A stretch of DNA of 64,000 bases from Alphaproteobacteria bacterium (lineage in GTDB: Bacteria > Pseudomonadota > Alphaproteobacteria > SMXQ01): contig JBKBHI010000001.1 of the NCBI GenBank assembly GCA_046297835.1, positions 391,354 through 455,353 on the forward strand, written 5' to 3'. Positions within the stretch are counted from its first letter, which is position 1. Every line of letters starts with the position of its first letter. Positions 22,543 to 46,222 of this stretch are shown in pieces. The notes beneath the pieces were generated by a model that worked only from the letters and a program-made list of their open reading frames with translations, did not search any database and was not told the DNA's origin. A program made the translations under genes and the position numbers.

Positions 22543-22552
22543 GGAAACGATC

Positions 22553-23405: not shown

Positions 23406-23428
23406 TGCTTCCGTGTGATTTTTTCCGT

Positions 23429-23459: not shown

Positions 23460-23537
23460 TCATGGCACTCGGCCTTATAACGGAGAGAAATCATACAATC
23501 GCCACAGAGCATTTCCCTAGATATCCCAATAAATGGA

Positions 23538-26054: not shown

Positions 26055-26089
26055 TGTCTAGAGAGGTCAACAGGGCGGCTTGGTCCATT

Positions 26090-26105
26090 TGTAACAAACT
26101 GTAAC
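26090..26105 (+). promoter_or_regulatory. direct repeat TGTAACA-N3-TGTAAC, putative CopR (OmpR-family) box upstream of copRS
   Basis: ttTGTAACAaacTGTAACg lies about 115 bp upstream of the copR ATG. An identical repeat occurs upstream of the cupredoxin/pcoAB operon. Confidence 0.5.
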
Positions 26106-26221
26106 GCTTGCAGCCGAGGCATATGCGGCTCGGTGCGACAATGCTAAATTCTCTTATGGGCATGGCTCAATCTAACTCGCGACGCGAAAACGCTTCAGGA
26201 TTCGGCGAGAAGCCGAGTGTG

Positions 26222-28251: not shown

Positions 28252-28390
28252 GGCAAGTTAGCCGCTATCCTCGATCGGCCAGCATAGGGTGCTCAGGACT
28301 ATGGGGTGTTAGATAGTCTTGAGCGTCTACACTGGCCGAGCAGCTACTGAGCGCTACAAAAAGTGCAGCACCAAATGATGCTCAATTGGT

Positions 28391-28645
28391 TTATTGGCAG
28401 TTCGTGCGTTGACCGCCAATGCAAGCTGGAACAGCTCTGCTCCTGCTCGGAAGCAGAAAGCCATTAGCTGGTTTGTGTTCCCTCTTATCTCGGTCAATAA
28501 AAGGGGTGGCGGGAGGGCTGTTATCCGTGAGGACCAAGCTCATCCGCGGAGGATCGCCATCCTCATGACGCGCGATGGCAGGCGCGCTGAAAGTTGCCGA
28601 AGCAAAAGCTACGGCGACCACTGCAATTCTCAATGTAACGTACAT
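28391..28645 (-). CDS. hypothetical small secreted protein
   Basis: 84 aa with a clear signal peptide (MYVTLRIAVVAVAFASATFSAPAIA). No homology recognised. Weak call. Confidence 0.25.
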   Translation of the reverse strand: MYVTLRIAVVAVAFASATFSAPAIARHEDGDPPRMSLVLTDNSPPATPFIDRDKREHKPANGFLLPSRSRAVPACIGGQRTNCQ

Positions 28646-28918
28646 AAATTGACTCCCTGATTGATTGCATACCTTCAGGAGTCTATTTGCGCGCTGTAAC
28701 TACGGTATTTCCGGCTTGTTTCTCTTTGCAGCGAATTGTTTCCGGAAGATATCTATCTAGTTCGCAGTCGCGGCGTGTGGGACTGGATCGACTTGGTCAG
28801 AAGTTGGCAGCGGCCAATAACCTAGCGGAACTTATCGATTACCCAGGTCTTCGGTATGAGCCGTTTTTCAAGAGTGGCCTCTACGTATTGGTATGAGGCG
28901 CTTTACGCTTGGAGCGCA

Positions 28919-29502
28919 TCACTCTCGTGCCGCAAACCAAGCCAGGGGCAACGCTATCTCAGCAGACTCGATCAACTGCCGTAAACAGGTCTTGGGAGAC
29001 CAAATTTGCAAGAGTGTGAGCAACGGCAACGTGATGATCCGCGGTACGCGGCGAAACAGCCGCGCAACCAAAAAATACATCGGCAGCATCGAGATGAATA
29101 ACAGCATGTGAAGGGGCTCAATGTACCACCATAGGTACTCCGTCCACAGCACCTGGCCGCCGTTGAACTCCCCAGCGACCAGTGTTGCGGCGAAATATAG
29201 CGTCGTCAATAGCGCAAAGAAGCAGGTAAAATGGACAATTTTGCGATCTAAATAAGTGCGCCAGGGATGATCGTTGGTGCGGCTGAAAAAATAACCCCGC
29301 AATCAAAAAGAAAGCCGGCATTCGGAATGGCTTGGCGAAATCCCCCCAAGTATTGAACCCAGCCCCCAAATTGGGCCAGGCTTTGGACATAGATTGTCGC
29401 ATACAAGCCGACGACGGCGACGGGACAGATCCACTTGGCATAGCCGATCCAAGGAACGCGGGGGTTGCTTTCCTCTAAAGCCATACTGTCTTCCCATGAC
29501 AT
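28919..29502 (-). pseudogene. disrupted membrane protein gene (acyltransferase-3/DUF1624-like?) split over three frames
   Basis: Three consecutive overlapping minus-strand ORFs (29502-29248, 29441-29118, 29302-28919) all encode hydrophobic segments (for example FRMPAFFLIAGLFF). This is consistent with two frameshifts. The region is AT-richer than its flanks. Confidence 0.3.
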
Positions 29503-29639
29503 TCCGTCGATAACGGACTCGGCGCCTCGACGGAATGACTCAACAGGTCTGATCTATGTAAGCAGAAAGAATGCGATTAATGGTTCGGAACCCGCAGCCA
29601 CTTACCAAGTAATTGGCATTTGCATTCTTAAAGGATTGC

Positions 29640-30380
29640 TCAGAACCAGAAGCGAACGCCGGCGACTAGAGACAAGCTATCGACATCCTCCCCTTCAGAT
29701 CGGGCAAGGATCGCCGTCTCTCCCAACTTTCGCTCCCACGCGACACCAACATATGGCGCAAATTTTCTGCTGAACTCGTAGCGCAAGCGCAAGCCCAACT
29801 CGACATCGTTGATGCCGCCTCCCAGCCCAAGTTCGGGCACGTCCTGCGCTGCGAGGGTGATCTCAGCATTGGGCTGCAGAATTAGCCGCTGAGTGATCAG
29901 AAGGTCGTACTCAGCTTCAAATCGCGCTGTGAAATCGCCCTGTTCACTGACGAAGCCTTGGAGGTCGAGTTCGAAATACCCCGGAGCAAGGCCTTGCAGA
30001 CCGATCACGCCATAGGAGCGAGAGGGATCCGGCTCGAAGTCGTGGCGAACACCGACCTGTAAATCCCAATAGTAATCTATGAGGCGGGAATACAGGAGCT
30101 GAACCTCCGCGCTTTCGATGGCGTCGGATAAGCTGTACTCCCCCTTCGTCTTAAGCCAGACCTTGTGATAGTCGCCGCCGTACCAAGCATCGGCTTCCCA
30201 CGCGATGACGTCCTGCCCGTCTTGGGCACGGTACTCGAACTTATCGACGAGTACCGCCCCGACGAGCGGCTCGTGCATTTGAGACATGTTCGACATTGGC
30301 TGCGCATGGACTGCCGTCACCATAATGATCGACGCCAAGGTTGCAGCCGGAGCGACAAGCCAATTCTTCTTCCATTGCAT
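29640..30380 (-). CDS. copB: copper resistance outer-membrane protein CopB/PcoB
   Basis: Signal peptide. Beta-barrel family signature. Terminal aromatic motif (...GVRFWF). Confidence 0.8.
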   Translation of the reverse strand: MQWKKNWLVAPAATLASIIMVTAVHAQPMSNMSQMHEPLVGAVLVDKFEYRAQDGQDVIAWEADAWYGGDYHKVWLKTKGEYSLSDAIESAEVQLLYSRLIDYYWDLQVGVRHDFEPDPSRSYGVIGLQGLAPGYFELDLQGFVSEQGDFTARFEAEYDLLITQRLILQPNAEITLAAQDVPELGLGGGINDVELGLRLRYEFSRKFAPYVGVAWERKLGETAILARSEGEDVDSLSLVAGVRFWF

Positions 30381-30398
30381 GATTCTATCTCGACTTTC

Positions 30399-32264
30399 TT
30401 AGTGCGCTGCCGACGCGGCATCCCGTTGCACGATGACCTTGCGCATCATGCCCGTCTCCATGTGGTACAGAAGATGGCAATGAAACGCCCAACTACCCTC
30501 GGCATCGACCGGAATATCGACGTCCAACGAGGTACCCGGCTTAATGTTCACTACGTGCTTTAACGGGTCGCGCACACCATTACCGACCCGCGGCAACATC
30601 CACATGCCGTGAAGATGCATCGGATGGTTCATCATCGTTTCATTGATGAATTTGAACCGCGCACGCTCGCCGTACTTCAAGACAATGGGTTCTGCTTCGC
30701 TGAACTTCCGGCCGTTGATAGACCAGAAGAAGCGTTCCATGTTGCCCGTCAGGCGAATTTCAATCACGCGGTCCGGCTCTCGGGCGTCGAAAGGCGACGC
30801 AAACGCCTTAAGGTCCTTGTACGACAGCACCTTCGCGCCAGCCGGAGCCCCGGTGTCGTTGGCGAGGGGATCAGCCATCGCCATCGCCCCATGCCCCATC
30901 GCGGCATGATCCATGCCGGGCATAGCTCCTGTGCTAGGTGCCGGGGCGCTATTGGGCGGGCTTTGGCTCATCTTGGAATGGTCCATGCCAGACATTGCTC
31001 CCGCGCCGGATGACGGGGCGGTGGGCATTGCCATCTTAGAATGATCCATGCCGGCCATGCTTCCCTGCGGGGCCGCGGCGCTTGAACCTTCGCTCATCCC
31101 CGACATCGCGCCATGATCCATTTCCATGGGCGCCACGTGCCCCGGACGATCGGTTTCAGGATGAATCGTCCCGCGATCGAGGCCCGTCGGCCCAAAGCTC
31201 ATGCCCATGTCCGCCATCGTCAGCACGGGACGCGGGCGATGCTCCGGTATTTCGCCAACCATGCCCTCGCGCGGCGCCAGAGTTGCCCGAGCGAAGCCGG
31301 CACGATCGATCGATTCAGCGAGGATTGAGTAAGCCTGATCTTCCCGCGGCTGAACGATGACATCGTAGGTTTCAGCAACGGAAATGCGGAATTCATCGAC
31401 GGGGACGGGTTGGACGTTATTGCCGTCCGCCTGCACGACCGTCATCTTGAGGCCCGGAATCCGGACGTCGTAATAGGTCATGGCCGCGCCATTTATGAAG
31501 CGCAAACGCACCCGCTCACCTGGCTTGAAAAGCGCTGTAAAGTTCTTTTCAGGCGATTTGCCGTTGACCAAGAAGGTATATCCCGCGACGTCGGCGATAT
31601 CGGTCGGGTCCATGCGCATCTGGCCCCACATGAAGCGGTCGCTGAGCGCAGCTCCGAGACCGACTTCCTTAGCGTCGCGGAAGAGATCGACAAGGGTACG
31701 ACGGTTGTTGTTGTAGTAGCCAGGCGAGACCTTGAGATTGCGAATGACCGAGTCCGGATTTTCGTCTGTCCAATCCGACAGCATGATGATGTGTTCCCGA
31801 TCGTAACGGAACGGTTCACGCTGAGCCGGTTCTATAACGATCGGCGCATATAGGCCGAGTTGCTCCTGGTTCGCCGAATGGCTGTGATACCAGTAGGTGC
31901 CAGCCTGAATGATTGGGAATTTGTAGATGAATGTTTCCCCAGGCTGGATGCCGTTGAAGCCCTCGCTGATACCTGGAACTCCGTCTTGGGAAGATGGTAA
32001 AAGCAGTCCGTGCCAATGGATCGAGGCGACTTCATTGAGCTTGTTGGTCACTCGAATGGTGACCTCCTCGCCCTCCTTGAATCGAAGAACGGGGCCTGGC
32101 AATTGACCGTTGATCAGCATTCCCGGGCGCTCTTTCCCAGTTATGTTGACCATCTGATTTTCAAGCACCAGATCATAGGTGCCCGCGTTGGCTGCATGGG
32201 CGAACGCCAGCAGGATACCTGAAGCGGCTAATCCAATGCCGCTTTTCAAAAGCCAGGCTTTCAT
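30399..32264 (-). CDS. copA: multicopper oxidase CopA/PcoA
   Basis: Copper-ligand motifs HWHG, HSH, HPMHLHG and HCHLLYH. Central Met/His-rich insert (MDHSKM, MPGMDHAAMGHG). Confidence 0.9.
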   Translation of the reverse strand: MKAWLLKSGIGLAASGILLAFAHAANAGTYDLVLENQMVNITGKERPGMLINGQLPGPVLRFKEGEEVTIRVTNKLNEVASIHWHGLLLPSSQDGVPGISEGFNGIQPGETFIYKFPIIQAGTYWYHSHSANQEQLGLYAPIVIEPAQREPFRYDREHIIMLSDWTDENPDSVIRNLKVSPGYYNNNRRTLVDLFRDAKEVGLGAALSDRFMWGQMRMDPTDIADVAGYTFLVNGKSPEKNFTALFKPGERVRLRFINGAAMTYYDVRIPGLKMTVVQADGNNVQPVPVDEFRISVAETYDVIVQPREDQAYSILAESIDRAGFARATLAPREGMVGEIPEHRPRPVLTMADMGMSFGPTGLDRGTIHPETDRPGHVAPMEMDHGAMSGMSEGSSAAAPQGSMAGMDHSKMAMPTAPSSGAGAMSGMDHSKMSQSPPNSAPAPSTGAMPGMDHAAMGHGAMAMADPLANDTGAPAGAKVLSYKDLKAFASPFDAREPDRVIEIRLTGNMERFFWSINGRKFSEAEPIVLKYGERARFKFINETMMNHPMHLHGMWMLPRVGNGVRDPLKHVVNIKPGTSLDVDIPVDAEGSWAFHCHLLYHMETGMMRKVIVQRDAASAAH

Positions 32265-32285
32265 TGTTATCTCCTCAACATGATC

Positions 32286-32853
32286 TCAGCGACTGAAATT
32301 AACCTTGCCGACCATGCCCGCTTCATAATGTCCGGGAATATTGCAAGCGAACTCGAGCTCGACAGACTTACTGAACTTCCAAACGAGTTCTGCCGTTTTT
32401 CCAGGTTCGACGAGAACGCTGTTGGGGTCGTCGTGCTTCATCGACATTCCGCCCATCTGGGAATGATCCATATTCTTCATGTCGTGATTCATGCCCGTTG
32501 CGGTCATCATGCCGTGCTCAACCATCATGGCCATCTCCTTTTGATGTTCCATGTGCATCGCGACAGTACCGATGTTGAACTCATGAAGGAGCTGGCCGGC
32601 ATTGGTCAGCACGAAGCGAACCGTCTCTCCAGCCCGGACCTGCACACTTTCCGGCTCATAGGCGTTGTCGATCATTTTGATCCTGACAACGCGTGTCGTA
32701 CCGGTTGCCTTGCCTGCTTCGCCGATGGAATCGGCCGCATGGCTGTGGTCGTTAGCTCCAGCGGCGATAGCAAATGACGGCGGCAGAACCGTGGAAAGGC
32801 CAACCAGCGCGATCTGGAGGCCGCGAAGCGTCTTTGAAACCGATTTTGTCATT
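32286..32853 (-). CDS. cupredoxin-fold (blue-copper) periplasmic protein with a Met/His-rich loop (CopI-like)
   Basis: Type-1 copper ligand pattern (...HEF...C...H...M: FACNIPGHYEAGM). Met/His-rich stretch. First gene of the cupredoxin-pcoA-pcoB operon. Confidence 0.65.
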
Positions 32854-33049
32854 TCACAGTCCTTGGAATGGTGAGGAGTTTTTGGAATAGTGAGAGTTAT
32901 GGTGGCCAGACTCATGAGGGCTCGGCCAACGCAGGAGCGACCCATAACGCGGGGGGCGTCGGGGGCAAAGCAGACGTCTGCGCTGGCCGATGCAGTAAAT
33001 ATTCACTACCTGAGATTACGTGCGGTCTGTATCTCGGCAATCTCTATTG

Positions 33050-33066
33050 TGTAACAAAGTGTAACA
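33050..33066 (-). promoter_or_regulatory. direct repeat TGTAACA-N3-TGTAACA, putative CopR box upstream of the cupredoxin/pcoAB operon
   Basis: gTGTAACAaagTGTAACAgc has the same half-sites and spacing as the box at 26090. Confidence 0.5.
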
Positions 33067-33157
33067 GCGACGATGGATAAATCGCCCAAGGTCGCTGCGG
33101 TAGATATTGCATCAAGACCCTACGGAAATCCGTAGGCGCCAAGCCACGCAAATAACC

Positions 33158-33601
33158 CTACGAATGCGCTCCGCGGCATTTCCCATGATCGCCAAGCGTC
33201 TCAATGACGCGGCACTCGGCGATCGTGCCTTGATGGCAATCTGAGGTCATCCGCACCAACTCACGCTCCATGCCCTTCAGCAGAGCGATCTTCCTTCGCA
33301 CTTCGACCAAATGTCGGCGGGCAATGGCATCGGCTTCTGTACAGGGCGCATCATGACGACCGCTCATCGCCAGGAACTGCCGCACATCATCCTGCGAAAA
33401 GCCGAGATCGCGGGCGTGCCTTATAAAGCGCAGCGTCGTAGCGGCCGCTTCTGAATATCGACGCTGGTTACCGGCAGTCCGGGGGGCTTGGGGCAGCATC
33501 CCCATCTGCTCGAAGTAGCGGATTGTTTGGACCTTGCACCCTGTCTGCTGAGCCAACTCACCTATCGTTAAGTATTTGATATCACTTATATCAGTGGCCA
33601 T
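33158..33601 (-). CDS. MerR-family heavy-metal-responsive regulator (ZntR/CadR/PbrR-like)
   Basis: N-terminal MerR HTH (LTIGELAQQTGCKVQTIRYFEQMGML). Dimerisation helix. C-terminal Cys cluster (PCTE...SDCH...AECRVIETLGDHGKC). Confidence 0.8.
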   Translation of the reverse strand: MATDISDIKYLTIGELAQQTGCKVQTIRYFEQMGMLPQAPRTAGNQRRYSEAAATTLRFIRHARDLGFSQDDVRQFLAMSGRHDAPCTEADAIARRHLVEVRRKIALLKGMERELVRMTSDCHQGTIAECRVIETLGDHGKCRGAHS

Positions 33602-33611: not shown

Positions 33612-33642
33612 TTGAAGCTCTAGTAACTGTAGCTCTTATGTT
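33612..33642 (+). promoter_or_regulatory. MerR-type promoter (TTGAAG, 19-bp spacer, TATGTT) between the divergent merR-like and ATPase genes
   Basis: The 19-bp spacer is read directly. It contains a direct AGCTCT...AGCTCT repeat rather than a perfect dyad. Confidence 0.45.
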
Positions 33643-33677: not shown

Positions 33678-36125
33678 ATGTCGGTCGCCACCTTGGGTCA
33701 GCCGTTGCGGTTCAAAGTCGAGGGCATGGATTGCCCAAGCTGCGCGATCAAGATTGAGAACGCGCTGAAATGGCTTCCGGGAGCCGGACAGATAGCCGTC
33801 GATGTCGGCGCCGGCACTGTCGCCGTCACACCGGCCAGCGGAGATTTCGTCCCCGAGGACGCCGCCGAGACGATCCGCAAGCTTGGATACAAAGTCCTCG
33901 CAACCCCAGCGGCGCCGGAATCTCGCCAACCGGTTCGCTTCAGCGTCGAGGGCATGGATTGCCCAAGCTGTGCGATCAAAATCGAGAACGCCCTGAAAAG
34001 AAACCCCGGAGTCGGCTCGATAGCGGTCAATGTCGGCGCCGGCACCGTCGCGGTGACGCCGATCAGCGATGCGTTCGTGGCGGAAGACGCGGCGGAAACG
34101 ATTCGACGCCTCGGATTTAAAGCGCAAGCGAATGCGCATCATGCCAAGGCCTCGCAACACAGTCCCGATAAACACGACCACGCCGGCCATGGCCGTGCGG
34201 GCCATGACCACGCGGGCCACGACGATGGCAGCCCTGCCACCGCAATATCCAGCAGCTCATGGTGGCAAACCTCTAAAGGCCGGTTGGTTCTCGTCGCCGG
34301 CGCGCTGCTGGCTATCGCTTTCATCGCAGACCAGATAGCCCCGGCATTGGGGCCCTGGCCGTTCGTTGCCGCAACGTTGGTCTCGCTGGTGCCCGTGGCG
34401 CGCAGGGCTTTTTCGGCGGCGCGCTATGGCTCGGTCTTCACCATCGAGATGCTGATGACTATCGCCGCTATTGGGGCTCTCGCCATCAACGCGGCGGAGG
34501 AAGCCGCAGTCGTCGTGTTTCTATTCTGCGTCGGCGAGCTGCTCGAAGGCGTCGCCGCGATGCGCGCCCGCAAGAGCATCGCCGCTCTCGGCGATCTGAC
34601 GCCCAAGACGGCCATGATCGTCGACGGAACGACCCTCCGCGAAGTTCAAGCGGATACGCTGCAACCGGGACATGTCGTCATGGTGCGCCCCGGCGACCGC
34701 GTTCCGTCTGACGGCGAGATTCTGGAAGGCAGCTCCGACATCAACGAAGCGCCGATCACAGGCGAGTCGGTGCCTAAAGCCAAGGCGCCCGGAGACACGG
34801 TCTTCGCCGGTACGATCAATCAGACCGTCGCCATCAAGGTTAAAGTGACCAAAGCCGCCAATGACAACACCATTGCGAGGATTCTCCGCTTGGTGGAGGA
34901 GGCTCAAGAGTCGAAGGCCCCCGTCGAGCGGTTCATCGACCGTTTTGCGCGGTTGTACATGCCCTTCGTGGTCGGCATCGCCATTTTAGTCGCGATCGTG
35001 CCGCCGCTCGCTTTCGGACAGCCTTGGGGCGAATGGGTCTATCGCGCTCTCGCTCTGCTGCTGATCGCCTGTCCTTGCGCGCTTGTGATCTCGACGCCTG
35101 CCGCCATCGCTGCGGGCCTGGCAGTCGGGGCGCGGCGCGGCTTGCTGATCAAAGGCGGCGCCGTGTTGGAAGGGGTTGGCCGGCTGCGCACCATCGCGTT
35201 CGACAAGACAGGCACGCTGACCGAGGGAAAGCCGAAGGTCACGGATATCGTGAATATCAACGCCTCGCCCGAGGACGCGCTCCGTCTAGCCGCCGCGCTG
35301 GAGAAAGGTTCAAATCATCCCATCGCCAAGGCGATCCTCGCCCGCGCGGATCGCGACGGACAAAGCCACACGACGGCGCAGGACGTCGCATCTCTCGGCG
35401 GTCATGGCCTGACGGGCGTCGTGGAGGGCCGCGCGCTGTTCCTCGGCAATCCGCGCAGCGCGGCGCAGCGGTCCGGCTTCGACGATCACGTGGCCGCCGA
35501 GACCTCCCGCTTGGAAAGCGAAGGGAAGACGGTCGCGGTTTTGATCGAGGGCAACTCCACTCTTGCCCTCATCGCGCTGCGCGACGAACCTCGTAAAGAC
35601 GCCAAACGCGGCTTGGCTGCTCTATCCGCGCTCGGCGTTAAAGGCGTGATGCTGACGGGCGACAACGCGCGCGCGGCGGCGGCCATCGCCCGCGATCTTG
35701 GCGTGGAACCACGGGCCGAACTGCTGCCTGAGGACAAGGCCCGCATCGTCAATGAACTGAAAGCTGCGGGCTATGGTCCGGTCGGCAAAGTCGGCGACGG
35801 CATCAACGATGCGCCCGCGCTGGCGGCGGCCGACGTCGGCATCGCGATGGGCGGCGGAACCGATGTCGCCCTGGAAACGGCGGACGCCGCGCTGTTGAAC
35901 AATCGCGTCATGGGCGTCGCCGAGTTGGTGAAGCTATCGCGGGCGACTCTGTCCAATGTTCACGTCAACGTGGCTTTGGCTATTGGCTCGAAAGCGATAT
36001 TTCTCGTGACGACCGTTCTAGGCTTGACGGGCATGTGGGTCGCCATCATGGCCGATACCGGCGCGACAGTGCTCGTCACCCTCAATGCGCTGCGCTTGCT
36101 CGCCTTCCGATTCGACAAAACCTGA
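33678..36125 (+). CDS. P1B-2-type (Zn/Cd/Pb) heavy-metal ATPase with two tandem HMA domains and a His-rich linker
   Basis: GMDCPSCAIKIENALK occurs twice (ZntA-like metal site). His-rich HDHAGHGRAGHDHAGHDD. CPC motif (IACPCALVISTP). DKTGTLT, GDGINDAP. A TTG at 33648 is an alternative start. Confidence 0.85.
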   Translation: MSVATLGQPLRFKVEGMDCPSCAIKIENALKWLPGAGQIAVDVGAGTVAVTPASGDFVPEDAAETIRKLGYKVLATPAAPESRQPVRFSVEGMDCPSCAIKIENALKRNPGVGSIAVNVGAGTVAVTPISDAFVAEDAAETIRRLGFKAQANAHHAKASQHSPDKHDHAGHGRAGHDHAGHDDGSPATAISSSSWWQTSKGRLVLVAGALLAIAFIADQIAPALGPWPFVAATLVSLVPVARRAFSAARYGSVFTIEMLMTIAAIGALAINAAEEAAVVVFLFCVGELLEGVAAMRARKSIAALGDLTPKTAMIVDGTTLREVQADTLQPGHVVMVRPGDRVPSDGEILEGSSDINEAPITGESVPKAKAPGDTVFAGTINQTVAIKVKVTKAANDNTIARILRLVEEAQESKAPVERFIDRFARLYMPFVVGIAILVAIVPPLAFGQPWGEWVYRALALLLIACPCALVISTPAAIAAGLAVGARRGLLIKGGAVLEGVGRLRTIAFDKTGTLTEGKPKVTDIVNINASPEDALRLAAALEKGSNHPIAKAILARADRDGQSHTTAQDVASLGGHGLTGVVEGRALFLGNPRSAAQRSGFDDHVAAETSRLESEGKTVAVLIEGNSTLALIALRDEPRKDAKRGLAALSALGVKGVMLTGDNARAAAAIARDLGVEPRAELLPEDKARIVNELKAAGYGPVGKVGDGINDAPALAAADVGIAMGGGTDVALETADAALLNNRVMGVAELVKLSRATLSNVHVNVALAIGSKAIFLVTTVLGLTGMWVAIMADTGATVLVTLNALRLLAFRFDKT
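33699..34120 (+). repeat. intragenic tandem duplication (about 219-bp period) encoding the two HMA domains
   Basis: The two copies are highly similar at the nucleotide level across about 200 bp (ggcatggattgcccaagctg[c/t]gcgatcaa[g/a]at[t/c]gagaacgc...). Confidence 0.7.
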
Positions 36126-36146: not shown

Positions 36147-36638
36147 ATGCCCCGCTCCTTGCACCTTGGATTATTTTCGGCGTTCTTCGTTGCCGCGTTT
36201 TCAGCCGATCAGGCTTCTAAGAAAATCGCTTTAGACGCGCTTGCAAATCCGCCTCGGATCGTTGAAGTCCTTTCTTTTTTCAACCTGAGGCTCGGATTCA
36301 ACAGCGGAGTGAGCTTCGGATTGTTCGCGACCGATTCGCCGTACATCCTGATCTCTCTGACGGGGGCCGTGATCGCGATTCTCGCCTGGTGGGCTTATCG
36401 CGCTCAATCCGCTATTGAGACGGTTGCATTGGGGCTCATTGTCGGCGGCGCGCTGGGCAACCTCGTCGATCGCATTCGACATGGCGCAGTTGTCGATTTT
36501 CTCGACCTGTTCTACCAGGAATGGCATTGGCCGACCTTCAATGTCGCCGACATTACGATTGTTTCCGGGACGTTGCTTTTAGTTCTGACGTCCTTGCGCC
36601 AAGGCAAAACGCCGACAAAACCCGCCTCAAAAAGCTGA
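36147..36638 (+). CDS. lspA: lipoprotein signal peptidase II
   Basis: Conserved LspA blocks (FNxGxSFG, NLVDRIRHGAVVDF, FNVADI). Confidence 0.8.
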   Translation: MPRSLHLGLFSAFFVAAFSADQASKKIALDALANPPRIVEVLSFFNLRLGFNSGVSFGLFATDSPYILISLTGAVIAILAWWAYRAQSAIETVALGLIVGGALGNLVDRIRHGAVVDFLDLFYQEWHWPTFNVADITIVSGTLLLVLTSLRQGKTPTKPASKS

Positions 36639-36657: not shown

Positions 36658-37170
36658 ATGACCGGAATGACTGGACGAGCGGCCCTCCTGGTCGTGTTTG
36701 CTGTTTTTACAATGCAGGCGGGCGCGCTCTCGCGCGCGGTCGCGCATGAGTTCAAAGCGGGCGAGATAACTGTCCAACACCCCTTTAGCCGCGTGACGCC
36801 GAAGGGCGTTAAAACTGGAGCGGCCTACATGACGATCGTGAACGGCGGAACATCGCCTGACCGCCTCATCGGCGCGACGACGGAGATTGCAGAACGCGCC
36901 GAAATTCATCGCACAACCACGACTGACAACGGCGTCATGAGAATGCGCCTCCAGCCCGACGGAATCGCCATACCCGCTGCCGGCGAGATCAAGCTCCAGC
37001 CCACGAGCGAGTATCATATCATGCTGGTCGGCCTCAGCGAGCCGCTGCAAGAAGGAATGAAAATTCCTCTCGTCGTGAAGTTCGAGAAAGCGGGATCCGT
37101 TGCGGTCGAACTGGCTGTCGAGGCTCTGCGAAAACGTCCCGATGCGCCGCCGAGTCACGGCGATCATTGA
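36658..37170 (+). CDS. periplasmic copper chaperone PCu(A)C (DUF461)
   Basis: Signal peptide and the H(M)x10Mx21HxM-type copper motif (HIMLVGLSEPLQEGMKIPLVVKFE). Confidence 0.75.
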   Translation: MTGMTGRAALLVVFAVFTMQAGALSRAVAHEFKAGEITVQHPFSRVTPKGVKTGAAYMTIVNGGTSPDRLIGATTEIAERAEIHRTTTTDNGVMRMRLQPDGIAIPAAGEIKLQPTSEYHIMLVGLSEPLQEGMKIPLVVKFEKAGSVAVELAVEALRKRPDAPPSHGDH

Positions 37171-37778
37171 CGATGAAAACCCTACGGCTTGTTCGTATCG
37201 TCGCGTGGATCGCTGTCGCATTGGCGCTCACGCTGCTTTTTGGCTATTGGAAATCCCTGCCGTCCAAAAAATCTGAGGATGCGGCTATCACGTCGCCGAT
37301 GCGGCTTGGAGGGTCTTTTTCGCTCGTTGACCACACCGGAGAGGCTGTCACAGATAAAGATTATCGCGGCAAGCCGCATTTGCGGTTTTTCGGTTTCACG
37401 CATTGCCCGGACGTCTGCCCTACGACATTGTCGTGGCTCGCCGACCTCGTGGAGCAGTCGGGCGGAGATGTCCCTATTCTGCTCGTCAGCGTCGATCCCG
37501 AGAGAGATACCCCAGAGGTGCTCGCGGATTACGTCTCCAGTTTTGGCCCGAACATCGTTGGACTGACGGGGACGGTCGATCAGATCGACGCTGTCGTCAA
37601 AAGTTGGGGAGCCTATTCCAAACGGGTGCCGCAAGAGGGCGGAGGATATACGATGGACCACACCGCTAGCGTCTACTTGGTCGATGGCGACGGCGCTTTC
37701 CGCGGCACTCTCGACATTCATGATGCGTCTCCGACGGCAAATCTCGCCAAACTTAAACGTCTCCTCGAATCGAATTGA
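37167..37778 (+). CDS. SCO1/SenC copper chaperone / thiol-disulfide oxidoreductase
   Basis: N-terminal membrane anchor. CxxxC motif (FTHCPDVCP) plus the conserved distal His in a thioredoxin fold. Confidence 0.8.
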   Translation: MTMKTLRLVRIVAWIAVALALTLLFGYWKSLPSKKSEDAAITSPMRLGGSFSLVDHTGEAVTDKDYRGKPHLRFFGFTHCPDVCPTTLSWLADLVEQSGGDVPILLVSVDPERDTPEVLADYVSSFGPNIVGLTGTVDQIDAVVKSWGAYSKRVPQEGGGYTMDHTASVYLVDGDGAFRGTLDIHDASPTANLAKLKRLLESN

Positions 37779-37790
37779 AGCCGGAGCATT

Positions 37791-37973
37791 ATGAGCGACA
37801 GCCAGAACGAGCGAAAATCGAGACAGAAGCTCCAGCAGCGCCTGAAGTCTCGCAACCTCGCTCTGGCCGCCGTTCTGGCTGGGTTGGTCATCTTGTTTTT
37901 CGCTGTCACTATCGTTCGCGTTCAACAAGGAAGCGAACAACGGGGCAATGCCCCTCTCATTATAAATCGTTGA
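37791..37973 (+). CDS. hypothetical small single-TM protein
   Basis: 60 aa: a basic N-terminus, then one hydrophobic helix. No homology recognised. Confidence 0.25.
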   Translation: MSDSQNERKSRQKLQQRLKSRNLALAAVLAGLVILFFAVTIVRVQQGSEQRGNAPLIINR

Positions 37974-37986
37974 GGGACTGACGGAG

Positions 37987-38418
37987 ATGGCCGAAAATAG
38001 GAATGGCGCAGTCTGGAATTTGATCTTTGCCGCTTGGCTCGTCGCCTTGGCATCCACTCTCGGCGCCCTGTTTATCGGCGAAGTCATGGGGCAAACGCCG
38101 TGCAACCTCTGTTGGTTTCAGCGCGCGTTCATGTTTCCTCTGGTCGTGATCCTCGGCATTGCCTGCTACCGGTCCGATGCCGCCGCTTGGATATACGGAC
38201 TGCCGGTCGCAGTCGCCGGCGGCTTGATCGCGGCGTTTCATAGTTTGCTATACTTCGGCGTCATCCCTAAGGAGATCGAACCCTGCGGAGCCGGCCCGTC
38301 CTGTTCGAGTCCGGATATGCTCATGCTCGGCCAGCTTCCGATCCCGGTTCTTTCGCTCATAGGTTTCATGGCCATTATCGGCCTTTTGCTGGTCGTCCGT
38401 CGGAGGCTCGAATCGTGA
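37987..38418 (+). CDS. disulfide bond formation protein B (BdbC-type DsbB)
   Basis: Four-TM protein with PCNLCWFQR in the first periplasmic loop and a second Cys pair (CGAGPSC). Confidence 0.7.
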   Translation: MAENRNGAVWNLIFAAWLVALASTLGALFIGEVMGQTPCNLCWFQRAFMFPLVVILGIACYRSDAAAWIYGLPVAVAGGLIAAFHSLLYFGVIPKEIEPCGAGPSCSSPDMLMLGQLPIPVLSLIGFMAIIGLLLVVRRRLES

Positions 38419-39077
38419 TGTCGAAGCGCGTTATCGTTCTGCTGACGGCGCTCGTCGCCGTGGGAATCTTTTTCGGCGCGGGCGTCGCCTACGACCGCCA
38501 GATGGCCAAGCTGAAAGAAGAAGCCGCCACCGCTTCCGCCAACGCGCTTATCCGCGACCATTCGCCTGTCATCGGAATCCCCGACGCGCCCGTCACGATC
38601 GTCGAGTTTTTCGACCCTGCCTGCGAATCCTGCAGAGCCTTCTATCCGATCGTGAAGCAAATTCTCGCGCGCCATCCGGATGATGTCCGCCTCGTCTTAC
38701 GTTACGCCCCGCTTCACGAGGGGTCAGACCAGGTCGTGCGGCTGCTCGAAACCGCGCGTATTCAGGGCATCTTCGAGCCTGTCCTCGAATCCGTGCTGCA
38801 AGCCCAGCCGCGTTGGGCGGCGCATGGCAATCCAGATATCGATATTGCCTGGCAGGCAGCTCGGATCGCGGGTCTCGATATAGAGCGCGCCAAACAGGAT
38901 CTAAATCTCCCGGCGATTGAAGCCGTCCTGAAACAGGATGTCGCGGACTTAACGACCCTTAAGATCAGGGGAACGCCGACGTTCTTCGTTAACGGCCAGC
39001 CCTTGCAATCCTTCGGACCGCGCCAGCTCTATGAAGCTGTCCTCAATGCGTTGCAGAATATTCGAGCTGCCGAGTAG
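38415..39077 (+). CDS. DsbA-family thiol:disulfide oxidoreductase (BdbD-like)
   Basis: Membrane anchor or signal peptide. Thioredoxin fold with a CESC active site and a cis-Pro region (GTPTFFVNG). Confidence 0.75.
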   Translation: MMSKRVIVLLTALVAVGIFFGAGVAYDRQMAKLKEEAATASANALIRDHSPVIGIPDAPVTIVEFFDPACESCRAFYPIVKQILARHPDDVRLVLRYAPLHEGSDQVVRLLETARIQGIFEPVLESVLQAQPRWAAHGNPDIDIAWQAARIAGLDIERAKQDLNLPAIEAVLKQDVADLTTLKIRGTPTFFVNGQPLQSFGPRQLYEAVLNALQNIRAAE

Positions 39078-39101: not shown

Positions 39102-39914
39102 GTGATTGATCTGCACTCTGCGCTGCTCGCTGGTCTGCTCGGAGCTGTCGAAGGGCTTACCGAATTTATTCCGGTCTCATCCACCGGACATCTGATTCTC
39201 TTGGTCGATTTACTTGGATTTCAGGGGCCTCCCGGCAAGGTCTTTGAAGTTGCCATCCAGCTTGGCGCAATCTTCGCCATTTGCTGGGTCTATCGCCGAA
39301 AGCTTTGGACTGTTGCAGTCAACTTCCCCAATGACAGAAATGCGCGCCGCTTCATATTTTCTATTTTAACTGGCTTTTTGCCGGCGGCATTGATCGGGGC
39401 GCTCTTGCACGATTTCATAAAGAGCGTTCTCTTTTCGCCCTATGTCGTGTCTGTCAGCCTCGTTTTGGGCGGGTTTGCCATGCTGGCGATTGAGCGATGG
39501 GCGCCGTCCCCGCGCATATCAGGAGTTGACCATGTGGACCTTAACACCGCTCTCAAGATTGGCTTCTGTCAGGCATTAGCCATGATCCCGGGAGTGTCCC
39601 GCTCCGGCGCGACAATCATGGGAGCGATTATGCTCCGAGTAGACCGCCAGACCGCGACGGAGTTCTCGTTTTTTCTCGCGATACCGACAATGGTCGGAGC
39701 CACGACTCTAGATCTCTATAAAAACTGGGAATCCATCGATCCTGCCGGGGGACTGATGATCGCGATCGGTTTTAGTGCGGCTTTCGGTGCCGGCCTTCTT
39801 GTCGTCAGGCGTTTAATCGCCTTTGTCGGAAAACACGGGTTCGCTCCGTTCGCCTGGTACCGTATCGCCTTAGGATTGGGGATAATCTTTATATATATGC
39901 CGGCCTCCGTATGA
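39102..39914 (+). CDS. uppP: undecaprenyl-diphosphatase (BacA/UppP)
   Basis: Conserved BacA blocks (EFIPVSSTGHL, PGVSRSGATI, AIPTM). Confidence 0.85.
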   Translation: MIDLHSALLAGLLGAVEGLTEFIPVSSTGHLILLVDLLGFQGPPGKVFEVAIQLGAIFAICWVYRRKLWTVAVNFPNDRNARRFIFSILTGFLPAALIGALLHDFIKSVLFSPYVVSVSLVLGGFAMLAIERWAPSPRISGVDHVDLNTALKIGFCQALAMIPGVSRSGATIMGAIMLRVDRQTATEFSFFLAIPTMVGATTLDLYKNWESIDPAGGLMIAIGFSAAFGAGLLVVRRLIAFVGKHGFAPFAWYRIALGLGIIFIYMPASV

Positions 39915-40265: not shown

Positions 40266-40751
40266 ATGCAACGCGATATTTCAAAAATAGCCTTAGATAT
40301 TGGCTCTCTGAACGGCTGCTCCCTTGCCCAATTACAGGCGCAATGGACGACCCTTGCGAGTAAGCCCTTAAAGGGGGCTCGGCGTGACTTATTGCAGCGC
40401 GCCATTGCTTACCTTTTGCAAGACCAGGAAGGCGGCGGCCTCTCAGCAAAAACGCGCCAGCGCTTAGGTCAGTTGGCTAAAACTTATGCCAAGGATCGTA
40501 GCGCCCAGGCCCAGATGGCGCCCGATCTCAAACCGGGCTGCCGGCTCCTCCGCGAATGGCAAGGCGTCATGCACGAGGTCGTCGTGCTGGAACAGGGCTT
40601 TCAGCACGATGACCGCACCTACCGCAGCCTCTCGGAAATCGCGCGCACGATCACCGGCACGCGCTGGTCGGGCCCACTGTTCTTTGGTTTGAAGAAGCCT
40701 GCTGGCACGGCGCAGCCATCGCACGCCGGTAAGATCAAGGCAGAGCGATGA
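40266..40751 (+). CDS. DUF2924-family protein (recombinase-associated)
   Basis: 161 aa directly upstream of a large serine recombinase, overlapping it by 4 bp. This pairing is typical. AAGGAGG ribosome-binding site. Confidence 0.55.
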   Translation: MQRDISKIALDIGSLNGCSLAQLQAQWTTLASKPLKGARRDLLQRAIAYLLQDQEGGGLSAKTRQRLGQLAKTYAKDRSAQAQMAPDLKPGCRLLREWQGVMHEVVVLEQGFQHDDRTYRSLSEIARTITGTRWSGPLFFGLKKPAGTAQPSHAGKIKAER

Positions 40752-42451
40752 GCGCGCCTAAAGTTCTGCGCTGCGCCATCTACACGCGCAAATCGTCGGA
40801 GGAGGGGCTTGAGCAAGAATTCAACTCTCTCGACGCCCAGCGCGAGGCCTGTGAGGCTTATGTCCTGAGCCAGCGTCATGAAGGCTGGCAGGCGCTCGAG
40901 ACGTTGTACGATGACGGCGGCTATTCCGGCGGCAATATGGAGCGTCCCGGGCTGGTGCAACTGCTTGCCGATGTCCGGGCGCGCAAAGTCGATGTCATCG
41001 TTGTCTATAAGGTCGACCGGCTCACGCGCGCCTTGTCGGACTTCGCCAAGATCGTCGAGACGCTGGACGGGCATGGCGTTTCCTTCGTCTCGGTGACGCA
41101 ACAATTCAACACCACCAGCTCGATGGGGCGGTTGACGCTCAACGTGCTGCTGTCCTTTGCCCAATTCGAGCGCGAGGTCACAGGCGAGCGCATTCGCGAT
41201 AAAATTGCCGCTTCGCGCAAGAAAGGCATGTGGATGGGTGGTCCGGTGCCGCTCGGCTACGACCTGGTCGATCATAAGCTGGTGATCAACGAGCCCGAGG
41301 CGACGACGGTGCGGCAGATCTTCGAACGCTACGCTGAACTGGGCTGTGTCCGCAAACTCAAGGCCGCACTCGACGAGGCCCAGATCGTGAGCAAGCGACG
41401 CGTAACCGCGGGCGGCCGGGCGTCGGGTGGCCAAGCCTTCGGTCGCGGCCAGCTCTATCATCTGCTGCGCAACCGGCTCTATCTCGGCGAGGCGGTGCAT
41501 AAGGGAACATCCTACCCAGGGCAGCATGACGCGATCATCGCGCCACGGCTATTCGAGGAAGTGCAGGCGACGCTGGCCGCCAATCGCGTCGCGCGTCGTG
41601 ATCGCCAGGGTGCCGCGTCGCCGAGCCTGCTCGCTGGCTTGCTCTTCGACACGGACGGCCAGCGCTTCACGCCGAGCCACACCCAGCGCCATGGCCGGCG
41701 CTATCGTTACTATGCCGCAGCTCAGCCGGCGGACGAGGGCGCCTCACAGGCCGGCCGGCTGCAGCGGTTGCCGGCGGCGCAGATCGAGGCCATCGTCGAG
41801 GGCGAGCTGAGCCGCTTGCTGGCGACGCCGTCCGAGCTTCTGAGTTATCTGCCCGGCGCGCCCGCGGTCCTGACCCACGCGGTTCTCAGCGGTGGGGCCG
41901 CTGCGGCGATACGCTGGTCGGCGGCCGCGGCACCCGCGCGGGGGACACTGCTGCGCGCTGTGCTACGCCGGGTGACGGTAAGCGCCACGCAGCTGCGCCT
42001 GACCGTCGACTTGCCGGCGCTGTGGCGGATACTGCTGCCTCTAGAGCAAGCCGAGGCCGCCAGCGCCTTGGCGCCGGCGACGCTCGAGATCGAACGGCCG
42101 GTGACTCTCAAGCGCAGCGGTCGTGAGACCCGGCTCTGGGTCCCTGGCGCCAACGCGCCACGGCAAGTGGCCAAGCCCAATCCGGCGTTGATCAAGCTGG
42201 TGGTCCGCGCTCATGACTGGTGGGGGCAGTTTCGGGCGGGGCGCTCGACGCAGGCGATTGCCAACGCGCTCGGCCTCAACCGCAGCTATATCGCGGCAGT
42301 GATGCCGCTCGCCTTCTTGGCGCCAGATCTGGTTGAGGACATCCTGGCCGGCTGTCAACCGCCGGGCTTACAGACCAAAGACCTGATGGACCTGCCATTA
42401 GAATGGGCGGCGCAGCGCGCGCTCCTCGCGGCGCGCGCTGAAGGTATCTGA
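40748..42451 (+). CDS. large serine recombinase
   Basis: Resolvase catalytic domain (AIYTRKSSEEG...DAQRE...VIVVYKVDRLTR). Recombinase domain. Long C-terminal coiled-coil/Zn region. 567 aa. Confidence 0.85.
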   Translation: MSAPKVLRCAIYTRKSSEEGLEQEFNSLDAQREACEAYVLSQRHEGWQALETLYDDGGYSGGNMERPGLVQLLADVRARKVDVIVVYKVDRLTRALSDFAKIVETLDGHGVSFVSVTQQFNTTSSMGRLTLNVLLSFAQFEREVTGERIRDKIAASRKKGMWMGGPVPLGYDLVDHKLVINEPEATTVRQIFERYAELGCVRKLKAALDEAQIVSKRRVTAGGRASGGQAFGRGQLYHLLRNRLYLGEAVHKGTSYPGQHDAIIAPRLFEEVQATLAANRVARRDRQGAASPSLLAGLLFDTDGQRFTPSHTQRHGRRYRYYAAAQPADEGASQAGRLQRLPAAQIEAIVEGELSRLLATPSELLSYLPGAPAVLTHAVLSGGAAAAIRWSAAAAPARGTLLRAVLRRVTVSATQLRLTVDLPALWRILLPLEQAEAASALAPATLEIERPVTLKRSGRETRLWVPGANAPRQVAKPNPALIKLVVRAHDWWGQFRAGRSTQAIANALGLNRSYIAAVMPLAFLAPDLVEDILAGCQPPGLQTKDLMDLPLEWAAQRALLAARAEGI

Positions 42452-43558: not shown

Positions 43559-44734
43559 TTAGTTTTGCTGCATCTCAAATAAGGTACGCAAAGTACCGCG
43601 CTCAATTAGGCGTGAGAATTTTTTGTAATTTTGATGATCTCGTTGCCAGCGGCCTGCGACTATCGCGATGTTTACTCGGGCCTGAATCGATAATGAAGTT
43701 ACGTCGTCCTGACTCATGTCGTGAGCCCAATGAAATTGAGAAAGGATGTCGCTCGGAATAAGCGACTCTTGTGCCAAGAGATCGGCTTCACGCTCATAGG
43801 CATCATCACTATTGATTTCAATATCATCAATAAATGCTGAGCCAGACTCTCTCAGATAATCGTAATGCAGCGAGATGTGCGCCAGCTCGTGCAGAAGTGT
43901 AAACCAGAAGTTATCGAGGCGATCGTGTCGCAATGTGAGTCCTACGACCGGCCGACTTGCCGCGTCGACCATTGCAGCGCCATCGAGAAATGTTCCGGGA
44001 AGTGGCGGCAGTATCACGACACAAATCCCAAGTTTAGCTAGATGAGTAATCACGCGAGTAGGCCCATCAGTTCTGGCGCTAATCCTTGCTACAGACCGTA
44101 ATTCGGATGATCCGAATTTAGACTGTTCAAAAGTATTCTTAAGGCGCTGGTTCTCGCTTTTTCTGACTACTGCAGCTTGCCAAAGCAAAAGAGCATGCTG
44201 GTCTGTTTTTGACGCAGCACGTTGCGTTCTGGTTTTGCGAAGTAACGCGGGAGAAAGGTTTGTTTGAGCAACCGGGCTTAAAAAAGCATCTAGCTCTTTA
44301 GGCCCAACTTTAAAGCCCATAGAACTTAAGCGATTAAGTGCGGGAGTAGACTCGCTTTCAAAACTCTTATCAGCTCTGCTCGAGATAAGAGATTCGTAAG
44401 GTATGCCGAGGCCCTGATGTAGTGAGCGGATCATATCAATTGATAGTTGTCGCTTACCTGAAAGCACCTCGGACACGCGTGCGCGTGAACCTATAAACGG
44501 CTCTAACTGCTTCGGTGAAAGGCCGAGAGCATCCATGCGAAATTTTATCGCTGCGATAGGGGATGGGGATTCAATGTGAAAATATTTTTTTTCATATTGC
44601 TCGATGAGAGTCGCAAGGACCTCGATCTCATCATCGTAATTAAGATTGTTGCTGGCTTGCAGCAGATCCTTGATGCGACTCTTCGCGTCTTTCAGATCAA
44701 TTTCGGTGCGAATGGGTTTGATCATCGGATTCAT
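43559..44734 (-). CDS. HigA-like HTH antitoxin fused to an ImmA/IrrE-family metallopeptidase domain
   Basis: XRE HTH (LGLSPKQLEPFIGSRARVSEVLSGKRQLSIDMIRSL). HEXXH motif (LLHELAHISLH). Start overlaps the higB stop (ATGA). Confidence 0.75.
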   Translation of the reverse strand: MNPMIKPIRTEIDLKDAKSRIKDLLQASNNLNYDDEIEVLATLIEQYEKKYFHIESPSPIAAIKFRMDALGLSPKQLEPFIGSRARVSEVLSGKRQLSIDMIRSLHQGLGIPYESLISSRADKSFESESTPALNRLSSMGFKVGPKELDAFLSPVAQTNLSPALLRKTRTQRAASKTDQHALLLWQAAVVRKSENQRLKNTFEQSKFGSSELRSVARISARTDGPTRVITHLAKLGICVVILPPLPGTFLDGAAMVDAASRPVVGLTLRHDRLDNFWFTLLHELAHISLHYDYLRESGSAFIDDIEINSDDAYEREADLLAQESLIPSDILSQFHWAHDMSQDDVTSLSIQARVNIAIVAGRWQRDHQNYKKFSRLIERGTLRTLFEMQQN

Positions 44735-45125: not shown

Positions 45126-45590
45126 GTGACGCGTTTCACCGTTTTTGGAAAGAGCCTGGATGCAAACGAGCAGCAGGCTTTAAGGAAATTCGCCGAGCAA
45201 GCAGCGGGCAAAGGGGATGAGGTTAGTTTTGCCGCGTCCATTGGCGAGCCCGATCCCTCTGTCGATAGCGAAGTCGTTCTGGTTTTGGGAACGGCAAGTA
45301 CGTGTGCTAGCGCCGATCTCGCCAATGATTTGCAGCTGGCTGCAAATGGTGCCCGGCGCATCATCTGGGTTTGGCCGGAGGGCGTAGGCGAATGCGAGCT
45401 GCCTTCAGTCGTCAGGACTTACGCCTATTCGATCATCGTTTGGAATGTGGGGAAGTTAAAGTCGGTCGCAGCCGACGATGATGCGAGGTGCTTTGAAGCA
45501 TCGACGGGGGAGGCCCTGCCTAAAGTCGAAACTGAACGAAATCTCTGTGCCGATGTTGAGGCCGAAAACCCCAAGGCTAAAACAAAGTGA
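45126..45590 (+). CDS. hypothetical protein, possible Rossmann-like (SLOG/TIR-like?) nucleotide-binding fold
   Basis: GTG start with a GAGGTGG ribosome-binding site; the annotated TTG at 45078 or ATG at 45084 would lie inside the operator. VVLVLGTAS...ADLANDLQLAANGARRIIWVWPEG is reminiscent of SLOG/LOG-type folds. Low certainty. Confidence 0.4.
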   Translation: MTRFTVFGKSLDANEQQALRKFAEQAAGKGDEVSFAASIGEPDPSVDSEVVLVLGTASTCASADLANDLQLAANGARRIIWVWPEGVGECELPSVVRTYAYSIIVWNVGKLKSVAADDDARCFEASTGEALPKVETERNLCADVEAENPKAKTK

Positions 45591-46219
45591 ATTTATTCTC
45601 TTACGTCGTAGAGCACGATCTTGGGTTCGCTCCGAATCCATTTCACGGATTTTGCACGCTTGCTTGTTGCAAGCCGGAGATCCGTAAAAAAGCGAAAGAG
45701 GGTGACTACATAATTGGCACCGGTGCAACAAGGCCGGGGCTTCTCGGGCACATCACCTATTGGATGCGTGTGGATGAGATTCTGACCTTCGATGAATATT
45801 GGAGTGACCGCCGCTTCCGTTACAAGAAGCCCTACATGGAAGGCACTACCATGTTGCGCTACGGCGACAACATTTATCACCGAAGCGGCGGTAAAGATTT
45901 TCAGCAAGAGGATTCATTCCACAGCCATGAGGATGGCAGCCTTTCTCGTGGTGATTTAAAGCGAGATACCCAAAAGACGGAGAGGGTTCTTATAGGGCGT
46001 GACTTTTCGTATTGGGGGCGTAACGGAATACTGTTGCCGGAACACCTGCAGTGCCTTGTGAAAAAAGGACCTGGGCATAAGTGTCGATTCACTGAAGAGC
46101 AGATAGCTATGTTTCATGCTTGGTTGAGCAATCAGCGTGAACGTGGCTTTAAGGGGGAGCCGGCTCATTGGCAATTTATTGGACAGCTCAAGCGCCGGCC
46201 TTCCCGGGCTCGGAGGTGA
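45587..46219 (+). CDS. Nmad2-like (nucleotide-modification-associated domain 2) protein
   Basis: The N-terminus MNLFSYVVEHDLGFAPNPFHGFCTLACCKPEIRK matches, from memory, the conserved start of the Nmad2 family. The start overlaps the upstream stop (ATGA). Confidence 0.5.
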   Translation: MNLFSYVVEHDLGFAPNPFHGFCTLACCKPEIRKKAKEGDYIIGTGATRPGLLGHITYWMRVDEILTFDEYWSDRRFRYKKPYMEGTTMLRYGDNIYHRSGGKDFQQEDSFHSHEDGSLSRGDLKRDTQKTERVLIGRDFSYWGRNGILLPEHLQCLVKKGPGHKCRFTEEQIAMFHAWLSNQRERGFKGEPAHWQFIGQLKRRPSRARR

Positions 46220-46222
46220 TAG

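Follow-up and report, generated by a model that had tools for sequence, protein, structure and literature searches.

Why should a metal-resistance island carry a disulfide-forming protein pair of its own beside copper chaperones, and to which metal do these genes answer? The question is raised by a 64,000-nucleotide stretch of an alphaproteobacterial contig (JBKBHI010000001.1, positions 391,354–455,353, forward strand; hereafter the window), in which positions 36658–39077 encode a PCu(A)C periplasmic Cu(I) chaperone, a Sco/SenC protein, a BdbC-type DsbB membrane thiol oxidase, and a DsbA-like thioredoxin-fold protein. The initial annotation likened this set to the Scs (suppressor of copper sensitivity) systems and proposed that it protects periplasmic thiols under copper stress. 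We lean, with limited confidence, towards a different explanation: a soft-metal-induced efflux operon with an envelope-care module at its centre, the individual roles within it being less certain. Because they lie in the middle of a conserved, mobile operon built around a Cd/Zn/Pb pump, the thiol-care genes most likely shield the envelope against exported soft metals as a class, copper being only one of them. Coordinates are positions within the window, and gene identities come from an open reading frame (ORF) listing combined with Pfam and NCBIfam profile scans.

An operon-like string behind a P1B-2 pump

All four genes are confirmed on the plus strand with strong Pfam matches, and both CxxC motifs are as first described, C39-N-L-C42 in the DsbB and C70-E-S-C73 in the DsbA-like protein. 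The genes are indeed closely spaced, but a fifth gene, yco2 (37791–37973, plus strand), had been missed between sco and dsbB, and the set, although real, is merely the middle of an eight-gene string on one strand. Divergent from a merR gene, the order runs P1B-2 ATPase, lspA, pcuAC, sco, yco2, dsbB, dsbA, uppP. Gaps measure 12–24 nt, and the start of dsbA shares 4 nt with the end of dsbB. Whether pcuAC and sco abut or overlap depends on where the latter is taken to begin: the ORF opens at TTG 37167, and gene callers take ATG 37173, giving a protein of 201 residues. Terminator-like sites occur at chance level (8 found versus 8.0 expected). Since the gaps are short, dsbB and dsbA overlap, and terminator-like sites do not exceed chance, the eight genes likely form one transcription unit.

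The string opens with a P1B-2 (Zn/Cd/Pb) P-type ATPase (33678–36125, plus strand; NCBIfam PRK11033, 809 bits; TIGR01512, 522 bits against a cut-off of 313.5). Its mechanically called ORF begins at TTG 33648, and ATG 33678 is preceded by a GGGAGAG ribosome site. The protein carries two GMDCPSC heavy-metal-associated (HMA) metal-binding domains, CPCALVISTP, Nx7K, and DxG; the CPC, Nx7K, and DxG motifs place it in the P1B-2 subtype that characterizes pbr/cad-type operons. A separate Cu(I) P1B-1 pump with GMTCxxC, YNx4P, and MxxSS motifs lies at 23538–26054.

The only regulator adjoining these genes is a PbrR/CadR-like metal sensor of the MerR family (33158–33601, minus strand; Pfam MerR families), divergent from the operon and not CueR-like. 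Among solved relatives it matches PbrR (5gpe, 4.8e-23), CadR (2e-21), and MerR (1.6e-20), with CueR at 1e-10, and its C87, C122, and C131 align with the metal-binding cysteines of PbrR (the Cys79/Cys114/Cys123-equivalent triad). The 76-bp region between merR and the ATPase gene contains a MerR-type promoter, read from the sequence at 33612–33642 (plus strand), in which a −35 TTGAAG and a −10 TATGTT flank a 19-bp spacer with the imperfect dyad AGCTCTAGTAACTGTAGCT. A 19-bp spacer is a hallmark of MerR-activated promoters (PMC3431237); our consensus promoter scan missed the site because it allowed spacers of 16–18 bp only. The promoter is kept in four orthologous cassettes at ~70–75% nucleotide identity; L084, L085, and L087 show the same architecture. 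With a P1B-2 pump in front, a PbrR/CadR-like regulator, and mostly P1B-2 ATPases beside its relatives, the reading of the immediate unit as a copper unit is not borne out.

The layout instead recalls the pbr operon of Cupriavidus metallidurans plasmid pMOL30 (PbrR, PbrA, PbrB/PbrC) and merR-cadA-lspA modules: a divergent three-cysteine MerR, a 19-bp spacer, a P1B-2 ATPase in first position, and signal peptidase II and undecaprenyl diphosphate (C55-PP) phosphatase activities in the same operon (PMC3431237). In pbr, PbrA is coupled with a C55-PP phosphatase/signal peptidase fusion (PMC3431237). The counterpart of PbrC is LspA, lipoprotein signal peptidase II (36147–36638, plus strand; PF01252, 6.1e-35; TIGR00077, 111.5 bits against a cut-off of 73.95), whose translation shows both catalytic aspartate motifs, VDFLD and FNVAD. 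Two differences stand out. First, the phosphatase here is BacA/UppP (39102–39914, plus strand; PF02673, 9.3e-80; NF001389, 355 bits against a cut-off of 262) rather than a PAP2-type PbrB, and LspA is a separate protein. Second, pcuAC, sco, yco2, dsbB, and dsbA are inserted between lspA and uppP. Pfam and NCBIfam scans, which included no direct search for these families, assigned no cassette gene to PbrB (PAP2), PbrT, or PbrD. The locus thus looks like a pbr/cad-type operon with a BdbC/BdbD-type oxidative pair set into it. As an aside, the mmf genes of Tn6048 were considered as a DsbA/DsbD-like parallel, which was dropped because the paper gives mmfB as a C55-PP phosphatase and mmfC as DUF347; the likeness that remains is that a metal-responsive cassette includes a phosphatase.

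Five further contexts show the order merR | ATPase-lspA-pcuAC-sco-yco2-dsbB-dsbA, with protein identities of 54–100%. Relative to the window, amino-acid identity is 95–100% in L083 (uppP present), 66–84% in L084 (uppP absent), 56–78% in the chromosomal L085/L086, where the cassette sits between comEC and phoD/lexA (uppP absent), and 54–80% in L087/L088 (uppP present); the fifth context, a JGI contig of P0004, has a DsbA-like protein of 78% identity and carries uppP followed by a DedA/VTT gene. A megablast of the 6.9-kb region against plasmids returned short ATPase fragments only, and a close relative was not found there.

The Dsb pair and its relatives

The DsbB-like protein (37987–38418, plus strand; PF02600, 2e-11) is best described by the Bacillus BdbC-type NCBIfam model PRK03113 (1.2e-28), against 7e-3 for the E. 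coli DsbB model. It has a second cysteine pair, C100-x5-C106, and both pairs are conserved in 74 homologues; a sequence search found no solved relative. The DsbA-like protein (38415–39077, plus strand; PF13462 Thioredoxin_4, 6e-20; DSBA, 1.9e-12) belongs to the DsbA/BdbD/ScsC-like thioredoxin-fold proteins, and an N-terminal membrane anchor is read from its translation. Its AlphaFold2 model (pLDDT 91) has a thioredoxin fold with an inserted helical domain, the CxxC, and a cis-Pro loop, and the top structures are DsbA, BdbD, and ScsC proteins: the leading Foldseek matches are a Silicibacter oxidoreductase (3gyk, 1.3e-10), Caulobacter ScsC (5.7e-9), and BdbD (1e-8). The CxxC cysteines and the TPT of the T-cisPro loop GTPTF are invariant in our alignment (A2). 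Within the clade the active site reads CETC (51), CEAC (31), or CESC (5), that is, CE[T/A/S]C, and an acidic residue inside the CxxC dipeptide is unusual. Beyond the cysteines, the invariant residues are E71 (within the CxxC), R74, H101, E112, W134, H137, D175, and D178. BdbD has a Ca2+ site, and these residues might conceivably make up a site for Ca2+ or another metal.

The pairing resembles BdbC–BdbD of Bacillus subtilis, in which a short BdbC-type DsbB lies beside a membrane-associated Thioredoxin_4 protein, and the structural match of the DsbA-like protein to BdbD (TM 0.67–0.78, 24% identity) agrees with this. The active site differs, CESC here and CPSC in BdbD, and so does the setting, which is proteobacterial, plasmid- or island-borne, and within metal operons rather than competence or bacteriocin contexts. 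From the adjacency of the two genes in 73 of 80 loci (see below) and their 4-nt overlap alone, we infer that electrons may flow from the DsbA-like protein to DsbB and on to quinone.

How, then, does the locus relate to Scs? The Scs system (ScsABCD) is reductive, powered by the DsbD-class electron importer ScsB (PMC3322552, PMC10907172), and copper sequestration by ScsC requires its reduced state (PMC3322552, PMC10907172, PMC11634996). With Scs of Salmonella, Proteus, and Caulobacter the locus shares a metal-linked accessory PF13462 thioredoxin-fold protein and a theme of envelope-thiol protection. Caulobacter ScsC (7rgv) is the second-best solved relative of the DsbA-like protein (phmmer 6.9e-10; Foldseek 5.7e-9 at 27% identity), and the Proteus and Salmonella ScsC proteins also match it. 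Unlike Scs, however, the partner is a DsbB-family oxidase, and regulator and pump point to Cd/Zn/Pb. A Pfam scan of the cassette found no ScsA, ScsB/DsbD-type reductase, or ScsD, and no DsbD_TM match among its genes; tblastn (1e-3) across the entire window returned no homologue of DsbD_TM/CcdA or TlpA. With a DsbB-type oxidase for a partner and nothing of the ScsB/DsbD type to act as reductase, the locus does not qualify as an Scs system, though the Scs association has a real evolutionary basis in the kinship of the DsbA-like protein to ScsC.

Neighbourhoods were counted in 80 genome loci encoding DsbA homologues of 50–60% identity in alpha-, beta-, and gammaproteobacteria. A DsbB lies nearby in 73, a metal exporter (P1B ATPase, cation-diffusion facilitator (CDF), or resistance-nodulation-division (RND) pump) in 53, Sco in 35, MerR in 33, LspA in 30, PCuAC in 17, and CcdA/TlpA in 12; in 11 loci exporter, MerR, LspA, Sco, and PCuAC are all missing. 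The initial view of the pair as a private, metal-linked accessory is thereby well supported, metal genes being found at 69 of the 80 loci. CDF exporters occur in 32 loci, and the 34 nearby P-type ATPases comprise 24 of type P1B-2, 8 of type P1B-1, and 2 of type P1B-4. Among the 35 Sco-containing loci, 22 have Sco without PCu(A)C, adjoining CDF exporters. In three cases, L010, L081, and Pseudomonas silesiensis plasmid pPL2, a MerR-type promoter with a 19-bp spacer stands immediately 5′ of dsbB-dsbA.

Homologues are borne on 240 plasmids, 126 of them conjugative. On Hydrogenophaga pBPS33-1 (L090) the order is P-type ATPase, DUF3703, lspA, DsbB, Trx, SCO, YnfA, and a second annotated arrangement runs from PCuAC through a CDF to DsbB and Trx. 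In ~20–30 betaproteobacterial loci and in L090, the Dsb pair is accompanied by DUF3703, a ~130-residue Cys/His-rich secreted protein with no Pfam match, and YnfA/UPF0060; an L,D-transpeptidase is sometimes added. No paper mentioning DUF3703 was found in the open-access literature, and a review of P. aeruginosa clone C mentions an island DsbA with no metal context.

These counts also bear on the possibility that the string is a loose accretion in a recombination-prone island, its genes sharing no function and the Dsb pair serving as a housekeeping backup for disulfide formation. The island is a mosaic: 10 kb of cop genes have been inserted, a breakpoint falls 30 nt ahead of the uppP stop, and there are recombinases at the flanks; UppP and PCuAC are variably present among relatives. 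Against this, the gene order is held in five other contexts despite divergence to 54–80% protein identity, dsbB and dsbA are translationally coupled, and metal genes co-occur across three proteobacterial classes. We regard an accretion of this kind as highly improbable.

The copper chaperones and the surrounding island

PCu(A)C (36658–37170, plus strand; PF04314, 1.6e-34) has a cleavable signal peptide, as read from the translation, no cysteines, and a His-rich C-terminal tail; its His/Met ligand residues align with those of the solved PCu(A)C proteins 9yah (3.6e-23) and 2k6w. Sco (37173–37778, plus strand; PF02630, 1.1e-47) has an N-terminal membrane anchor, likewise read from the translation, and keeps C80PDVC84 and the DHT histidine. 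Its nearest solved protein is Bradyrhizobium ScoI (Blr1131, 8.2e-45). Both proteins thus resemble the ScoI/PcuC CuA-assembly chaperones of Bradyrhizobium diazoefficiens and Thermus in their ligands (CxxxC and His in Sco, His/Met in PCu(A)C); unlike those, they are encoded downstream of a Zn/Cd/Pb pump in a mobile metal island and not with oxidase genes or TlpA.

Between sco and dsbB, the 60-residue single-transmembrane product of yco2 carries the Pfam tag PF27516 (YCO2), taken from the precomputed annotation of independent contigs, where independent gene callers also called the gene. It is kept across L083–L088. The protein shows a sub-threshold match to Coa3_cc (E 0.0044; 17 bits against a cut-off of 27), and such matches recur in 10 of 15 YCO2 family members (best 0.0018). 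A word-indexed search retrieved only 3 proteins and an exhaustive HMMER search 14 representatives; tblastn found no match in plasmids. No cox genes lie near yco2, and a link of YCO2 to cta operons could not be shown: S. meliloti has a small ORF between ctaB and ctaG, but its membership of the same family is unproven.

Could the genes then be a dedicated maturation set for one cuproenzyme or other cargo, with the pump linkage a matter of hitch-hiking? Candidate cargoes would be an aa3-type oxidase or, from the island itself, the multicopper oxidase, the cupredoxin, or the cytochrome c. Precedents exist in DsbL/DsbI for AssT and plasmid-borne SrgA for Pef fimbriae, and some horizontally acquired Dsb pairs have substrates of their own (PMC10907172). 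The closeness of Sco to the CuA assembly factor ScoI, the weak Coa3-likeness of YCO2, and a cytochrome c gene syntenic with the cassette would suit such a role, and Bosea-type loci, in which the Dsb pair stands beside PCuAC, Sco, TlpA, and CcdA, look like maturation sets. Yet no oxidase or other evident substrate gene is conserved beside the cassette; the companions of the Dsb pair in beta- and gammaproteobacteria are CDF, P1B-2, LspA, and DUF3703, with no cuproenzymes among them; and in several loci dsbB-dsbA is driven directly by MerR-type promoters. We consider this alternative decidedly unlikely.

Copper determinants dominate the window (CusBA, the Cu(I) P1B-1 ATPase, CopRS, CopB, a CopA multicopper oxidase, and a cupredoxin), and the placing of the genes in a metal island is therefore right. 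The cusB-cusA-cytochrome c genes (17858–23059, plus strand; Pfam) are syntenic neighbours; the cusA product contains AIGAMVDAAIVMIEN, presumably the fourth-transmembrane-helix motif of the CusA type. In L084 and L087 they are joined directly to merR, and the copper block at 23083–33157 (P1B-1 ATPase, copRS, copB, copA, and cupredoxin) is absent. Because of this direct junction, we interpret 23083–33157 as a ~10-kb insertion into an older cusBA-cytc-merR-ATPase module. The G+C content of the block is 52–58%, below that of its flanks.

In a copper-stress, Scs-like system, protecting periplasmic thiols and buffering Cu(I), specifically under copper excess, would fall to the Dsb pair together with the copper chaperones. 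The abundance of copper genes fits, as do the direct adjacency of the cassette to cusBA in L084 and L087, the intact copper sites of Sco and PCu(A)C, a DsbA-like fold near the Caulobacter, Proteus, and Salmonella ScsC proteins, and the Cu-type share (8 of 34) of the ATPases neighbouring relatives. Opposed to it are the missing Scs components and DsbD_TM/TlpA homologues; the DsbB-type oxidase partner, whereas a copper-sequestering ScsC must remain reduced (PMC11634996); the P1B-2 type of the operon's pump and the PbrR/CadR-like rather than CueR-like regulator; and the apparent insertion of the cop genes, which related contigs lack. We find this account unlikely. Thiol protection itself remains a reasonable part of the original proposal, with Cd/Zn/Pb (and Cu besides) as the more likely stressor and with oxidative chemistry.

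Several further observations concern the island's edges. The 98.4% identity to L083 stops 30 nt before the uppP stop codon (39884). After bacA, L083 and another relative carry a DedA/VTT-family gene, which may form with bacA a pair for recycling undecaprenyl phosphate (C55-P); past uppP the window has DUF2924 and a large serine recombinase (40266–42451) instead, probably the island edge. Just beyond the recombinase and a helix-turn-helix (HTH)/IrrE-like gene (43559–44734), positions 45587–48964 hold a cluster of Nmad2 (1.8e-66), MazG with MazG_C (2.4e-53), and a 5-hydroxymethyldeoxyuridine (5-hmdU) DNA kinase helical-domain protein (5e-105, minus strand), which resembles the thymidine-hypermodification gene sets that phages usually carry. 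On the other side, upstream of cusBA and adjoining a cyclic-nucleotide (cNMP)-binding regulator, a minus-strand protein in 16090–17243 gives a sub-threshold match to the heavy-metal-resistance family Metal_resist (PF13801; 28.0 bits, cut-off 29.2) and may be a further envelope-stress component of the island.

A proposed mechanism and its significance

Taken as a soft-metal operon, the locus would work as follows. The PbrR/CadR-like sensor would bind Cd(II), Pb(II), or Zn(II), possibly also Hg(II), through its three cysteines and activate the 19-bp-spacer promoter. The ATPase, judged by its subtype motifs, would move the metal from the cytoplasm to the periplasm, and the downstream genes would reinforce envelope processes harmed by thiophilic metals there. 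The DsbB-type, quinone-linked oxidase would re-oxidize the DsbA-like protein, which in turn would quickly close the free cysteine pairs of exported proteins into disulfides, so that these cysteines could no longer be captured by Cd, Zn, Pb, or Cu(I). We propose this role because the two genes are translationally coupled, because of the families to which their products belong, and because E. coli, B. cepacia, and P. putida become sensitive to Cd and Zn when dsbA is lost (PMC12041740, citing Rensing 1997 and Hayashi 2000). Together with the Coa3-like YCO2, PCu(A)C and Sco may keep copper insertion into cytochrome oxidase going despite competing metals, or Sco may act as a thiol-disulfide oxidoreductase. 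LspA and UppP would stand in for PbrC and PbrB, the one processing lipoproteins, the other dephosphorylating C55-PP, which would free periplasmic phosphate and sustain wall synthesis; the parallel goes no further than analogy because UppP is not homologous to PbrB.

Five points weigh against this explanation. First, uppP is absent from L084, L085/L086, and all 80 distant loci, because of which it is to be seen as an optional add-on to the cassette. Second, the CE[T/A/S]C motif is unusual, and the nearest characterized structural relatives of the DsbA-like protein include the reductive or isomerizing ScsC proteins. Third, the only candidate periplasmic cysteine pair inside the cassette is that of Sco, although UppP also has two cysteines. 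Fourth, the sensor and promoter features are observed, whereas the identity of the inducing metal as Cd(II), Pb(II), or Zn(II) is deduced from sequence alone. Fifth, copper may be as relevant as Cd, Zn, or Pb, since the canonical copper ligands are intact in both Sco and PCu(A)C and CusBA accompanies the cassette.

A bolder form of the soft-metal explanation can be offered only tentatively. The CE[T/A/S]C DsbA-like protein and the BdbC-type DsbB, usually with Sco and LspA, might constitute a mobile, MerR-controlled "thiol-closing" resistance determinant that complements Cd/Zn/Pb efflux; the acidic motif and the invariant His, Asp, and Glu residues might make the oxidase resistant or responsive to soft metals; and PCuAC, Sco, and the Coa3-like protein might be a stress-specific backup for oxidase copper insertion. 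The component families are all known and the genomes routinely annotated; no published description of the operon, of this gene combination, or of a metal-linked CE[T/A/S]C Dsb clade was found in open-access text.

Efflux, sequestration, and redox detoxification are the usual explanations of metal resistance. This compact cassette, taken with its relatives on 240 plasmids and in three proteobacterial classes, suggests that mobile Cd/Zn/Pb determinants routinely bring their own oxidative-folding pair, Sco, and lipoprotein peptidase under direct MerR control. If so, the Cd/Zn hypersensitivity of dsbA mutants would gain a dedicated, transferable counterpart, and Sco proteins would gain a role outside oxidase assembly.

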